A stretch of 64,000 nt of DNA, taken from positions 288,001 through 352,000 of the forward strand of contig CM000434.1 in the NCBI GenBank assembly GCA_000165345.1, given 5' to 3'. The notes beneath the pieces were generated by a model, which was not told the DNA's origin, ran no database searches, and saw nothing but the letters and a program-made list of their open reading frames with translations. Made by a program: the position numbers and the translations under genes. Within the stretch, counting starts at the first letter, position 1. Each line of letters opens with the position of its first letter. Of the stretch, positions 8,575 through 14,407 are shown piece after piece.

Positions 8575-8582
8575 TTGGCGCC
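8575..8582 (+). promoter_or_regulatory. E2F-type motif TTGGCGCC, 66 bp upstream of the DNAJC9-like ATG
   Basis: Exact TTGGCGCC. The same 8-mer in coding-strand orientation recurs at -73 of DPH5 (9416..9423) and at -67 of the NTMT gene (11133..11140, minus strand). Confidence 0.5.
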
Positions 8583-8647
8583 TCAAGTTAATATTAATCT
8601 TTGAACTTTAAAGCAATTTTGAGTGAATATTTTATTGAAAATTCTTT

Positions 8648-9391
8648 ATGGTGAAAGATATTCGTCTTTATGAAATAATTGGCGTATCTCCAAATGCTGG
8701 TGCTGCAGAAATAAAGAAAGAGTATAGGCTTAGGGCACTTGCTTTACATCCAGATAAAAATCAGAATGACGAAAAAAGCAAGGAAAGGTTCCAAGAATTA
8801 CAAAAAGCATATGAAATATTGAGAAATGAAGAATCTCGCAAGCTATATGATGAGACTGGCATAATTGAGGGTGAGGAAGGGAAAAAGTTTGATGACATTA
8901 TTAATTATTTTAAACAGTTTACCAAAAAAATATCTGAGAAAGATATTCAAGAATATAAAGAACGATACCGTGGGTCTGATGATGAATGGGAAGATTTGTC
9001 AAATTTCTACCTAAGATTTAATGGAAATTGCAAACTGCTGCTTGAATATATTCCCTTTTCCGAGCCAGAAGATATCAACTATTATGTGAGTATGATTGAA
9101 GATGCAATAAAAGATGGCAGACTTCCTCAAAAAAAAGAGTTTAAAGGATCAATTAAGGAGTTGCATGCCCAGGGAAAGAAATGGAAGGCAAAAATGAAGC
9201 GAGAGAAGTCTAAGCATTCAAGTAATATGGAAGATCTCGTTCAAGCGATCCAAAGCAGTTCTAAAAAAAGGATGGGAGGCTTTGCAAGTATTATTAGCAA
9301 GTTTAGTGACGATAGCTTTGAAGAAGTTGATGAAAGCAAGTTTCAAGAGATACAGGAAAATCTCTTGAAAAATAAAAAGAAAAAACGCTAG
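8648..9391 (+). CDS. J-domain protein, DNAJC9-like
   Basis: N-terminal J domain with HPDK (YEIIGVSPNAGAAEIKKEYRLRALALHPDKNQND). The C-terminal region matches the DNAJC9-specific region (KISEKDIQEYKERYRGSDDEWEDL, EDLVQAIQSSSKKR ~ DSLKAAIQSRQKDR). Confidence 0.8.
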   Translation: MVKDIRLYEIIGVSPNAGAAEIKKEYRLRALALHPDKNQNDEKSKERFQELQKAYEILRNEESRKLYDETGIIEGEEGKKFDDIINYFKQFTKKISEKDIQEYKERYRGSDDEWEDLSNFYLRFNGNCKLLLEYIPFSEPEDINYYVSMIEDAIKDGRLPQKKEFKGSIKELHAQGKKWKAKMKREKSKHSSNMEDLVQAIQSSSKKRMGGFASIISKFSDDSFEEVDESKFQEIQENLLKNKKKKR

Positions 9392-9415
9392 CCTAATTTT
9401 AATTTCAATATTCTT

Positions 9416-9423
9416 TTGGCGCC
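9416..9423 (+). promoter_or_regulatory. E2F-type motif TTGGCGCC, 73 bp upstream of the DPH5 ATG, inside a 104-bp intergenic spacer
   Basis: Seen directly. Confidence 0.5.
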
Positions 9424-9495
9424 TAGTTTGAGTCAAAATTGATTAATTCGAATTGGAAAAAAAAATAATCCGGGTTATAATAAAAATTTACTACC

Positions 9496-11132: not shown

Positions 11133-11140
11133 GGCGCCAA
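11133..11140 (-). promoter_or_regulatory. E2F-type motif TTGGCGCC (minus strand), 67-74 bp upstream of the NTMT ATG
   Basis: Plus strand reads GGCGCCAA. Confidence 0.5.
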
Positions 11141-12288
11141 CCACTAAATGTCAAACTTTACTCCATCAGCATAATAAGATTTGAATGACCACTTAATTTT
11201 GAAATACTCAATAGTTCCTATATTGTTAAAGAGAAAATTAAACTATATTGAATTTGAGGTATTTAACGTTACCTTTGTTGTGAGTTCAGATGCTGAATTT
11301 ATTTCCAAACTTTCTGTTTTCGTATTTGTATATATTTTTAAAGTCATTTTATGATACTTCCTATTTCTTGTAAATACCAATGCAATAATGAATAATACGA
11401 TATGAAGTATTATTCCAATAATTATTTTTGTCTTGAGTGTAACACTTTTCAGCATTAGCCTATATTTATTCATTTGCTGAATTATTATTGTTTTCTCATT
11501 AATTGGTAAAGTTTCTTTTTTCACTAATATACAGCCATTCAAATTAATGAAAGCTAAAATTTTACAAGAATAATTAAGTGATATGCTCTCAATTAAGTTT
11601 TTTTCTTTCTCGCAGTTGGATTGTTTCATTATTTTAATGTAAATATAATTGCATTTATTATCACTATTTGAATCCCAAGAATATAAAGTTTTATTTGAAT
11701 TACTTAAGATTTTAATAGGGTAAACACACTTAAATCTCCCAATTGTACTAATTAAAACATTTCTGTTTAGTATAGTCTCAAAATTATTACTGCATTTTAT
11801 TTTATCCACCAATATTTCACTGCCTTGTTCCAAATTTAACACTGCAGAACTTGTTTAAGTTTGTTTCAATACTAGACATGATTAAAATAACTTACTGTGA
11901 ATTAATGTCATTCAATTCAATAGCTAGTATACTGCTGACTAAGTAATATATAATAAATAAAGAATAAAATATCATATTCAATTTTTTAAAAAAATAAAAA
12001 AAAAAAATCAAATAACAAACATGCATTAAGCGTACAACTTTTTGCATGATTCAACTATCAACTACTTTTACATGCAATAATACAAATTATTTAAAATAAA
12101 TAAAAATAAATGCTTTGAAAATATCATTAAAAAAGTATTATTCTTATGTTCAATAATTAATGAAAAAAGTCAAATATGACTTACCGCCAAACATTAAATA
12201 GTTTATAAGTGAACAAAAACAAGTTTTTATGTAACATTAGTTCAACAAGGGTCTAAAACCAGGATATTATGAGGTTGATTTATAAAAT

Positions 12289-13578
12289 ATGGACAAAGAT
12301 TTTGATTACCCTTTAGATTGGAGAGAATTTTTAAATCGGATACTTCAGGAAAGTAGTAAATGCCGGAGCAAGATAACTAGTGTATTATTAATTGGACCAA
12401 AAAATAGTGGTAAAACGACATTTTGCCTTAAAATTGCAAAAGAATTTTTAAATAATAAAAGTTACCTGAATAATAATATTTATATTTTAGACTGCGATTT
12501 GGGTCAGCCCTTAGTGTCTCCAATGAGCTGTGTCAAATTAGTAAAATGGGATATAGAGGATATTTGCATTGGAAACTCAAAAAACATTAATATTTCACCT
12601 GAAGTAATGTTTTACATAGGAGGAAATAGCCCTATTACTCATCCTTTAAGGTATATAAAAGGATTAAAGCAATGTTTTGAATACATCAAAAGTATTGAAG
12701 AGGATAATATAATACTTATTCTAAACATGCCTGGATGGATTACAGGCGTAGGATTAGAAATCTCTTCGATTATTACTGCGTTTTCCATTGATATTTCAAA
12801 TAATGTTTATATTGGGTTTACAAGAGAATTTGAACCTAATACTAATAATTCTGAAGATAATTTTTCTTCTATGACGAGCTTCTATTCTTTCCCAGTTTTT
12901 GACTTGAATTTAGTGAAAAATATTAAAAACGAGGAATTTTCAATTGACAACCAACTAAAAACAAGAATATTTGTAAATACATTAAGTAATTTATATTCAA
13001 ATATAGAGATAAGGGAAATAAAGAAAAATGTTAATCCCCTCATTTTTTTTAATGAATATATGGGGTATTATTTATCAAAAAAACACATTCCCCAATATTT
13101 CTGTAAAACAGTACATTTCCCATTCAGCACCGTATGCATAATCCCTTGCCCAAGCACAACCTTAGCGAGTGAAGAATTGAAATTACACATACCGGCTAGA
13201 TTAACCAATTCAATTGTAGCTTTGTGTATTTTTAATGATGAAAAGCATAATTTTATTCCAGATCTTTCTGAGGAAGATCAAAAGTTTAATATTTTAGAAA
13301 CAAGAATTTTATTGCCTTGCATTGGGTTTGGAATAGTACATCACATTAACTATCAACTCAAAAATGTTGTTATAACTGCCCCTTGCTGGATACCTTCAAG
13401 TACTTTATCAAAAGTAAATGCTTTACAACTTACAGAAATGATGCTTCCTCAGAATTACTCTTTTAGTACTTCAAAGCCTTATATTTGTAATAAGCGATTT
13501 CTTGTAAAGGGAATTTCTTCAGGTGGGAAAGTTCCAAGTAGCCGTAAAAATTTAAAAAGAAAGATTCATAACATTTAG
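12289..13578 (+). CDS. Polynucleotide 5'-kinase of the Clp1/Grc3/NOL9 family (pre-rRNA processing)
   Basis: P-loop LLIGPKNSGKTTFC followed by the ILDCDLGQP motif typical of Grc3/Nol9/Clp1 kinases. ATG verified. Confidence 0.6.
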   Translation: MDKDFDYPLDWREFLNRILQESSKCRSKITSVLLIGPKNSGKTTFCLKIAKEFLNNKSYLNNNIYILDCDLGQPLVSPMSCVKLVKWDIEDICIGNSKNINISPEVMFYIGGNSPITHPLRYIKGLKQCFEYIKSIEEDNIILILNMPGWITGVGLEISSIITAFSIDISNNVYIGFTREFEPNTNNSEDNFSSMTSFYSFPVFDLNLVKNIKNEEFSIDNQLKTRIFVNTLSNLYSNIEIREIKKNVNPLIFFNEYMGYYLSKKHIPQYFCKTVHFPFSTVCIIPCPSTTLASEELKLHIPARLTNSIVALCIFNDEKHNFIPDLSEEDQKFNILETRILLPCIGFGIVHHINYQLKNVVITAPCWIPSSTLSKVNALQLTEMMLPQNYSFSTSKPYICNKRFLVKGISSGGKVPSSRKNLKRKIHNI

Positions 13579-13624
13579 AATTAAGATTTAACTAAACCAT
13601 TTTTTTATTTATTTTATCTATAGG

Positions 13625-14223
13625 TTATATCATTTTTGCTATTAATTTAATGAAACTCAAAATCTTCTCTTCGTTTATATCGCCTTTATTTTTAACTTCA
13701 TAAAAGAACACCACACTTATGTCTTCAAATAACGTTATTGCTAATCCAAAAGTATTTAAGCTATCTATTAGCCATATAACATCAGATGAATTTGAATCAA
13801 CTTCTTCGTTTTTAATATTAAACTGCTTACCCCACAAATCGATACTTAGCCCTTTCTTTTCTTCAGAGCTTTTATCAAAAAATTCTTGAATTTCTTCAAA
13901 AAAAAACTTTTCTATATTTGGGTGTAGAGATGTTTTCACATTCCATTCCTGAGCTTCGTAATTTTTTTTTGCTAATATGATTCCACGGTTTTGACTACAC
14001 CAAGATGGATATAGTGAAGTACATAGTTCATCCCAAGTATTAGAATCCAAATCATTAGGAGTTTCTAGTTTAATCCCCTGTCTTCTCTTCATTAACTTCT
14101 CTTGTTTGGGAATTTTTTTTTTGGATCTTTTTCCAAGTTTCTTTACCCTAAGTTTGAATTTATAAAGCACACATTAACAAGTGTTCAACATTACCTCAAT
14201 GAAGCATGCTCTTTTTCACTCAT
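13625..14223 (-). CDS. Hypothetical ~183 aa basic protein. Proposed 2-exon model: exon 1 is 14223..14195 (MSEKEHASL-R), the intron is 14194..14148 (GTAATG...CTTAG, 47 nt), and exon 2 is 14147..13625.
   Basis: The track ORF (end 14170) begins on GTG, not ATG. An in-frame ATG micro-exon 25 nt upstream joins through a GTAATG donor and a TAG acceptor and restores the frame (…TTG AG|G GTA AAG…). The only ATG inside the unspliced ORF is at residue 27. Confidence 0.35.
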
Positions 14224-14407
14224 TTTAACCAAATTAACAGCTATGATTTGACCTAGCTTAGTTCTTAATTGTATTTGACTATGAAAGCTAATTATATTCA
14301 ATTTATTTTAGCATGCCTAAAATAAATCTAAATATAAATTTATTTAGAGAATAAAAAAGGCGCTTGGAGTGCTTGTGATTATTTCAAAGATAAAAAAAAA
14401 TTTTCTG

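Follow-up and report, generated by a model that had tools for sequence, protein, structure and literature searches.

Among apicomplexan genera, Cryptosporidium alone has kept E2F/DP, and its main promoter signal appears to be an E2F-like box. As related by Oberstaller (2013) and by a 2025 review, the motif was described by Bankier (2003) on chromosome 6 of C. parvum. Mullapudi (2007) reported a GGCG motif in C. parvum upstream regions, and motifs 3 and 4 of Oberstaller (2013) are 5'-TGGCGCCA-3' and GGCGGG. No upstream motif is more over-represented than the E2F-like one: of 200 co-expression clusters, 161 have it upstream (PMC3734150, PMC4117751), and the clusters that bear it peak at every time point. 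Xiao (2025) found that it dominates sporozoite ATAC-seq peaks and also sits between genes within polycistrons (bioRxiv 10.1101/2025.01.17.633476). Published checks found no pattern in either the position or the orientation of the motif (PMC1779779, PMC7840661), and a protein-binding-microarray survey of AP2 domains grouped it with the motifs of non-AP2 proteins. The E2F-type reading and an E2F factor are already in the literature (PMC3734150, PMC4117751, PMC12246861 and bioRxiv 10.1101/2025.01.17.633476); cgd6_1430 is the candidate factor in the published work, where autoregulation of E2F is suggested as well. The 2025 review states that most regulatory components are without validation, and in the literature searched, including that later than the review, we found no study of Cryptosporidium E2F/DP binding to such sites.

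The window considered here, the whole 64,000-nt stretch of DNA that was analysed, is from Cryptosporidium parvum chromosome 6, as judged by exact protein matches: five of its proteins are identical to the C. parvum entries CAD98666-8, EAK89805 and CAD98689, and two loci from C. parvum CP029785.1 match its sequence identically. An initial annotation had judged GC-rich octamers upstream of several start codons to be improbable by chance, and this is borne out, TTGGCGCC occurring four times in the window against 0.25 expected and GGCGCC seven times against 0.77. Distances and regions were taken from the deposited gene models in place of a naive ORF map, which moved the core at 55450, for example, from 396 to 102 nt from its ATG; the sample was 73 kb of C. 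parvum DNA (the window and 8.8 kb to its left) plus eight orthologous loci. With these gene models, 20 of the 25 intergenic regions that bear promoters have GGCG[C/G] cores. The 9.9 kb of promoter-bearing intergenic DNA contains 22 such cores, ten GGCGC-type and twelve GGCGG-type, versus 1.5-3 expected, an excess of about 7- to 15-fold over shuffles, none of which reached 11. Coding DNA shows no core excess (22 versus 18 +/- 4 expected), and the nine convergent intergenic regions of C. parvum contain no core. The GC boxes are genuine, selected and conserved promoter cis-elements. The window sites match the published forms, [A/T][C/G]GCGC[G/C][A/T] (TGGCGCCA) or GGCGGG, and the boxes are the already known E2F-like upstream motif of C. 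parvum.

Where do the cores lie, and how well are they kept? All the sites listed in the initial annotation are present, and the gene identities it gave (DNAJC9-like, DPH5, NTMT, Grc3/Clp1-like and the E2F winged-helix domain) hold. Three TTGGCGCC cores are on the coding strand of the gene that follows, at the distances it had claimed (66, 73 and 67 bp from the end of the octamer to the ATG). The core at 8575..8582 (+) is ~65-66 nt upstream of the DNAJC9-like ATG (8648), and C. canis, felis, muris and ryanae have a GC core in the orthologous position, in ryanae GCGC only. That at 9416..9423 (+) is ~72-73 nt upstream of the DPH5 ATG (9496) and 25 nt past the DNAJC9 stop; canis, felis and muris retain a core there, and ryanae lacks one. 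That at 11133..11140 (-) is ~66-67 nt upstream of the NTMT ATG (11066), and canis, felis, ryanae and muris all retain a core. At 12184..12191 (-), TTTGGCGG, which reads CCGCCAAA on the plus strand, lies 100 nt upstream of the Grc3 ATG and antisense to Grc3; the orthologous sites have CCGCC in canis, felis and ryanae and two GGCGC copies in muris. A GGCGC core at 14359..14363 lies 44 nt upstream of the ATG (14408) of a 2060-aa gene, with AAGGCGCTTG kept in canis and felis and variants in ryanae and muris.

Elsewhere in the window, TTTGCCGCC (937..945, +), a GGCGG core (27437..27441) and a GCGCC core (37910..37914) lie in the divergent regions 560-1176, 27136-27663 and 37770-38273, respectively. 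TTCCCGCC (28327..28334, +) is upstream of a TSP1-domain gene, a GGCGGG core (29703..29708) is 211 nt upstream of the ATG at 29919, and a GGCGG core (32239..32243) is 161 nt upstream of the minus-strand ATG at 32077. The canonical E2F form TTTTCCCGCC (42544..42553, -) lies midway along the divergent promoter shared by Hus1 and HDAC, whose ATGs are 338 and 396 nt away, and TAGGCGGGAA is kept there in ubiquitum, felis, ryanae and serpentis. GGCGCC at 45174..45179 is in the divergent promoter of RPS23 and a 148-aa gene, where one or two cores are found in all five species, adjoining a conserved palindrome. Upstream of the CDK ATG by 158 nt, and antisense to the gene, is CCGCC (49251..49255, -; TTGGCGG on the minus strand), with TACCGCCA kept in ubiquitum, felis and ryanae, and GGCGCC plus GGCGC in serpentis. 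Near the minus-strand ATG at 55347 of a 227-aa gene, a GCGCC core (55450..55454) lies 102 nt upstream and adjoins TGCATGCA; another GCGCC core (55785..55789), 60 nt upstream of the ATG at 55850, is a proximal core kept in five species. TTGGCGC at 61927..61933 (+) lies 109 nt upstream of the minus-strand ATG at 61819, antisense to the gene.

The E2F gene has sites of its own. GGCGCC, with a second GCGC core 17 nt on (51524..51549), lies 416 nt upstream of its ATG, and the pair is conserved in five species; a TCCCGCTTCCGC block (51841..51852, +), ~95 nt upstream of the ATG, is near-invariant in five species, with a one-base difference each in serpentis and ryanae. The gene (51946-53946, +) is identified as cgd6_1430 from the neighbouring gene CPHLJ_6g1440 and the literature. 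Its winged-helix DNA-binding domain (~53053-53235) is residues 374-434 of the product (Pfam E2F_TDP, E = 1.4e-16), and this domain alone, with no hit over a coiled-coil or marked-box dimerisation region, scored in Pfam at E <= 0.001. Alignment of the product to human E2F4 (PDB 1CF7) shows QRRRLYDITNVLEGIG, and the recognition helix of human E2F4, RRxYDITNVLEGIG, is intact in the cgd6_1430 domain, so that the window itself codes for a cognate factor carrying the RRxYD DNA-contact motif. A fourth copy of TTGGCGCC is found within the E2F ORF, at 53320. The DP genes (cgd7_3650 and cgd8_1850) are on other chromosomes of the genome, according to the literature. The earlier proposal of this gene as trans-factor is supported by its sequence and remains a candidacy, one that is also the published interpretation for C. 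parvum.

The sites keep their cores in relatives. In the orthologous promoter-bearing regions of six other Cryptosporidium species, a core is found in 36 of 49, against 3 expected, versus 2 of 23 convergent regions in these species. Cores are retained at alignable orthologous places while the AT-rich surroundings have diverged. GGCGC and GGCGG forms replace each other at orthologous sites, and because the forms interchange in this way, we treat them as one class.

One might think, from the first genes, that the octamer stands at a fixed place. The initial annotation proposed just this: a position- and orientation-fixed TTGGCGCC element ~65-75 bp upstream of the ATG. As a core-promoter element it would define the start site like a TATA box or initiator. 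All three intergenic exact octamers are indeed on the coding strand, at 65-72 nt from the ATG (P ~0.005-0.02 under uniform placement), and GGCGC-type cores fall at 40-110 nt in 7 of 10 cases versus 3.25 expected (P ~0.014, for a window chosen after seeing the data). The latter, nominal bias we set aside because GGCGC and GGCGG replace each other at orthologous sites. Across species the median core distance is ~108 nt and hardly any site is closer than 40 nt. Against a fixed position, the 22 sites are spread from 44 to 460 bp from the ATG, showing no concentration of distances and no shift of the median relative to uniform placement within the intergenic space, save that the first ~40 bp are avoided; cores at least ~40 bp from the ATG are what is expected of an element upstream of the transcription start. 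Between species, spacing at the three cited promoters runs 66-140 nt for DNAJC9, 62-133 for DPH5 and 41-83 for NTMT, and the conserved cores at Hus1/HDAC, CDK and E2F are 130-420 nt upstream. The fixed spacing from which a core-promoter-proximal element had been argued is not supported. Two of the three cited spacers are only ~91-104 bp long, so any site within them is forced to be proximal. Around 68 anchored sites no TATA- or initiator-like companion element with constant spacing to the core rises above background. Fixed orientation fares no better: of the TTGGCG sites, 3 are in sense and 4 in antisense orientation, and between species the TT flank of the core is not conserved at the three cited promoters. 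Among unidirectional promoters, asymmetric cores show a 5:2 split for C. parvum and 10:6 for the other species, neither significant, and at 12184, 42544 and 55787 the TTT-S-S-CGC form can be read on one strand alone, opposite to the nearest gene. With the published checks pointing the same way, we hold a fixed core-promoter element to be unlikely. A kindred proposal would divide the cores. Palindromic GGCGCC-type sites would form a distinct proximal subclass at ~45-110 nt from the ATG, which probably puts them within a few tens of nt of the transcription start; they would act as the start-site-defining core element in a TATA-poor, very compact genome, and GGCGG-type sites would be distal and enhancer-like, perhaps read by a second E2F/DP pair. 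We think this division unlikely too.

Might the cores instead mark a specific regulon of cell-cycle and chromatin genes, as in animals and plants and as the initial annotation supposed? HDAC, Hus1, CDK, DNAJC9-like and E2F genes do have conserved cores. So, however, do DPH5, NTMT, Grc3, RPS23, RING, TSP1-domain and START-domain genes and genes of unknown function, and in the literature the motif-bearing clusters show the same breadth in number and timing. The regulon reading fails because ~80% of promoters have the motif irrespective of gene function, and we give it very little credence. That the cores are chance occurrences, or 3'-end or termination signals of the preceding genes, has in its favor that several cores are only 19-25 nt past the preceding stop codon; the excess over shuffles, the genus-wide conservation and the near absence from convergent, terminator-only regions refute it. 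There is a small chance that the cores are functional and yet read by something other than E2F/DP, either another GC-box protein or a nucleosome-positioning signal. The flanks would fit such a reader, the T-rich 5' and A-rich 3' sides of TTTSGCGCSAAA appearing only as a weak bias over the 74% A+T background (positional frequencies at the 68 anchored sites). On the other side, both published forms of the core fit the E2F consensus, E2F and DP proteins whose DNA-contact residues are intact are still encoded in the genome, and the AP2 survey places the motif among non-AP2 motifs.

Our preferred reading, which we consider probable, is that the sites are the published Cryptosporidium E2F-like motif, a general promoter element with gene-dependent spacing and a putative E2F/DP target. 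The element is a short GC core embedded in intergenic DNA of ~74% A+T, and each promoter region, shared divergent promoters included, typically has a single core. It may be bound by an E2F/DP heterodimer of cgd6_1430 or cgd1_1560 with a DP subunit encoded elsewhere. The core would mark or open the promoter, serving most genes as a general transcription element, and would not be the signal of a cell-cycle regulon. Its distance from the ATG varies with the gene and with the shortness of the spacer and follows no fixed spacing rule. The box matters for understanding gene expression in a pathogen that is a major cause of diarrhoea, and perhaps for targeting it, and conservation across the genus singles out a small set of well-supported sites for reporter and binding assays: the DPH5, NTMT, Hus1/HDAC, CDK and E2F promoters.

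How does the box compare with other promoter systems? With the TATA box, initiator and DPE it shares promoter proximity and about one copy per promoter; it differs in that the Cryptosporidium motif has no fixed spacing or orientation, its spacing varying between orthologous promoters. The likeness to the E2F/DP site of animals and plants, TTTSGCGCSAAA (E2F4-DP2, PDB 1CF7), lies in the palindromic SGCGCS core or its CCCGCC variant, proximal-promoter placement, and the RRxYD recognition helix of the factor. The differences are that here ~80% of promoters have the site, whereas there it serves a cell-cycle subset, that the flank preference here is weak, and that pRB-type partners are, according to the literature, largely absent from Cryptosporidium. 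This is no new kind of element, because the literature has stated the motif since 2003-2013 and the ATAC-seq work of 2025 reinforced it. What the present analysis adds to the published work is per-site conservation in six further species, the absence from convergent regions and the avoidance of the first ~40 bp. From the published Cryptosporidium E2F-like motif there is no essential difference: organism, chromosome, sequence, promoter restriction, candidate factor and the idea of autoregulation are all the same.

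The GGCGC or GGCGG core, an E2F-like motif, is tied to promoters in this part of the Cryptosporidium parvum genome. Gene boundaries came from the deposited gene models, in place of a naive ORF map, and the analysis was extended leftward by 8.8 kb beyond the window. The 25 promoter-bearing intergenic regions (9.9 kb, 26% G+C) hold 22 cores, spread over 20 of the regions, where 1.5 (mononucleotide shuffle) to 3.0 (first-order Markov) are expected; no shuffle of this DNA reached even 11. The nine convergent, terminator-only regions (1.7 kb) have no core on either strand, and genes, with 22 on either strand, are at expectation (18 +/- 4). 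It is from this excess, absence and parity that the link to promoters follows. The same compartment counts rule out a general compositional feature, and the empty convergent regions rule out a 3'-end signal. There is about one core per promoter region, shared divergent promoters included. The promoter of a Fringe/galactosyltransferase-like gene (57968-58213) appears to belong to a class without the motif: it lacks a GC core in all four species examined and has conserved ATGTGG...CCACAT and ATGCAT boxes.

The over-representation claimed in the initial annotation holds, with four copies of TTGGCGCC against 0.25 expected in the window and seven of GGCGCC against 0.77. All the secondary sites it named are present, and comparable cores that it did not list lie at 27437, 29703, 32239, 37910, 49251 and 55450. 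The fourth octamer copy, TTGGCGCCTA at 53320-53327, and a GGCGCC at 52264-52269 fall within the E2F coding sequence and are most simply put down to chance, since coding DNA overall has no core excess.

Are the cores maintained? Syntenic loci from six other species were compared, those of C. canis, C. felis, C. ryanae and C. muris on the DPH5 side and those of C. felis, C. ryanae, C. serpentis and C. ubiquitum on the CDK/E2F side. Nearly all orthologous promoters retain one GC core at the matching place, in intergenic DNA that has mostly diverged. This is so for DNAJC9, DPH5 (except in C. ryanae), NTMT, Grc3, the 2060-aa gene, Hus1/HDAC (as TAGGCGGGAA), CDK (as TACCGCCA) and RPS23, for both promoters of the divergent region 55348-55849, and for two cores 17 nt apart upstream of the E2F gene itself. 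In the six species, 36 of 49 orthologous promoter-bearing regions have a core, against 3 expected; of 23 convergent regions, only 2 have one. GGCGC and GGCGG types substitute for one another at orthologous sites, and therefore behave as one element class. The cores are thus under purifying selection across the genus.

The proposal that the elements stand at a fixed distance and in a fixed orientation fared less well. Three intergenic octamers do lie on the coding strand (8575, 9416 and, on the minus strand, 11133), ending 66, 73 and 67 bp before the DNAJC9-like, DPH5 and NTMT ATGs, and their clustering within an 8 nt span has P of about 0.005. This becomes about 0.02 when the first 40 nt are excluded and the NTMT spacer is given its true length of about 91 nt; the preceding gene probably extends into this space with an unannotated terminal exon. 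The 22 C. parvum cores lie 44, 60, 65, 66, 72, 91, 100, 102, 109, 140, 158, 161, 172, 189, 211, 222, 222, 231, 282, 338, 416 and 460 bases from the nearest ATG. When uniform placement within the individual intergenic regions is taken as the null, the cores are not concentrated at 40-80 nt (P = 0.28) or at 40-110 nt (P = 0.12), and their median is not shifted. The sole significant departure is that no core lies less than 40 nt from an ATG, where 3.6 are expected (P about 0.015). Spacing at the three promoters changes between species (DNAJC9, 66/92/95/140/77; DPH5, 73/74/62/133; NTMT, 67/53/~55/83/41), the conserved Hus1/HDAC, CDK and E2F sites are 130-420 nt upstream in all species compared, and no second element was found at a constant distance from the core. 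The core is thus proximal (all-species median about 108 nt, interquartile range 75-147 nt), and its position is not fixed. These results agree with Mullapudi 2007, where the GGCG motif of glycolytic genes had neither an orientation nor a position pattern (PMC1779779), and with Li 2021, where spacing to lncRNA start sites had no clear pattern (PMC7840661). As to orientation, GGCGCC is a palindrome, so that direction can be read from the flanks only. TTGGCG is sense at 8575, 9416 and 11133, and antisense at 12184 (Grc3), 49251 (CDK), 61927 and 7438 bp left of the window start. Asymmetric cores at unidirectional promoters divide 5:2 in C. parvum and 10:6 in the other species compared; neither ratio is significant, and both tilt against the proposed rule. 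The octamers' TT flank is not conserved in orthologs.

Several cores have neighbours. The GGCGCC core of the DNAJC9 promoter is preceded, 9 nt to its 5' side, by a GTGTGGGAAA box (8558-8567) similar to the published G-box; C. canis and C. felis keep this box, and in C. ryanae it reads GTGGGGG. The inverted repeat GTCTCTTAAAGAGAC (45126-45140) adjoins the core in the divergent promoter of RPS23 and the 148-aa ORF; similar repeats occupy the equivalent place in all five species compared, and this may be an element of ribosomal-protein promoters. At 55428-55454, ahead of the 227-aa gene, a spacer of about 13 nt separates TGCATGCA, known from the literature as the AP2_1 site, from AGCGCC; this composite is retained in four species, and C. 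serpentis has the variant TGCATG. Further TGCATGCA-like boxes are conserved at about 12020-12090, in the divergent region that precedes Grc3. TCCCGCTTCCGC and TTTTCCACGT, within 51841-51889, precede the E2F ATG by about 95 and 57 nt and are almost unchanged across five species; they could be additional E2F-like half-sites or 5'-UTR elements of that gene.

Five window-encoded proteins (CAD98666, DNAJ-like; DPH5 diphthine synthase; NTM1; a Grc3-like GTPase; CPHLJ_6g1440) are 100% identical to those of C. parvum, and 43 kb matches two chromosome 6 loci (CP029785.1) without difference. The gene annotated at 11243-11975 (minus strand) in GCA_031892065.1 has a probable unannotated intron (donor GT 11272/11271, acceptor AG ending 11218), and its terminal exon, 11217-11158, would encode ...LLSISKLSGHSNLIMLME* (window 11158-11272). 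Splice sites and peptide are kept in C. canis and C. muris, and the NTMT core lies only 19 nt from the proposed stop codon. Same-strand spacers of just 26 bp (45892-45917, 148-aa ORF to DEAH helicase) and 104 bp (9392-9495, DNAJC9 to DPH5) make these pairs candidates for polycistronic transcripts, which are reported in C. parvum; the second contains a core, as do published inter-cistron spacers.

What reads the cores? C. parvum has two annotated E2F genes, one of them cgd6_1430. The gene at 51946-53946 is cgd6_1430, since it lies directly upstream of 6g1440 and its product carries an E2F_TDP winged-helix domain (residues 374-434, Pfam E = 1.4e-16). Aligned to human E2F4 of the E2F4-DP2-DNA structure 1CF7, the protein has the recognition helix QRRRLYDITNVLEGIG; according to Zheng 1999, as cited in later work, the RRxYD residues make contact with the CGCGCG core. 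Sporozoite ATAC-seq peaks and intra-polycistron spacers are dominated by E2F-like motifs, and the E2F and DP genes have the motif in their own upstream DNA (bioRxiv 10.1101/2025.01.17.633476). We infer that an E2F/DP heterodimer would bind the cores and set up or mark open promoters at most genes, chiefly in asexual stages. Because a literature search found no binding or perturbation experiment on E2F/DP at the cores, a different GC-box reader might recognise them instead; we regard this as quite improbable.

How much of this is new? Earlier publications already describe the motif, assign it to E2F, report how abundant it is and that it occurs on chromosome 6, name cgd6_1430 as the candidate factor and raise possible autoregulation. 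The would-be new parts, fixed position and orientation, are unsupported. Small additions are the genus-wide conservation of individual sites, their absence from convergent regions and their exclusion from the first ~40 nt. Nor do the cores mark a cell-cycle regulon, as had been suggested, for they also occur at promoters with no such link, those of DPH5, NTMT, Grc3, RPS23 and the RING, TSP1-domain and START-domain proteins. The motif characterises promoters in general rather than marking a cell-cycle set, and its presence at these promoters agrees with its published occurrence in 161 of 200 co-expression clusters (PMC3734150, PMC4117751).
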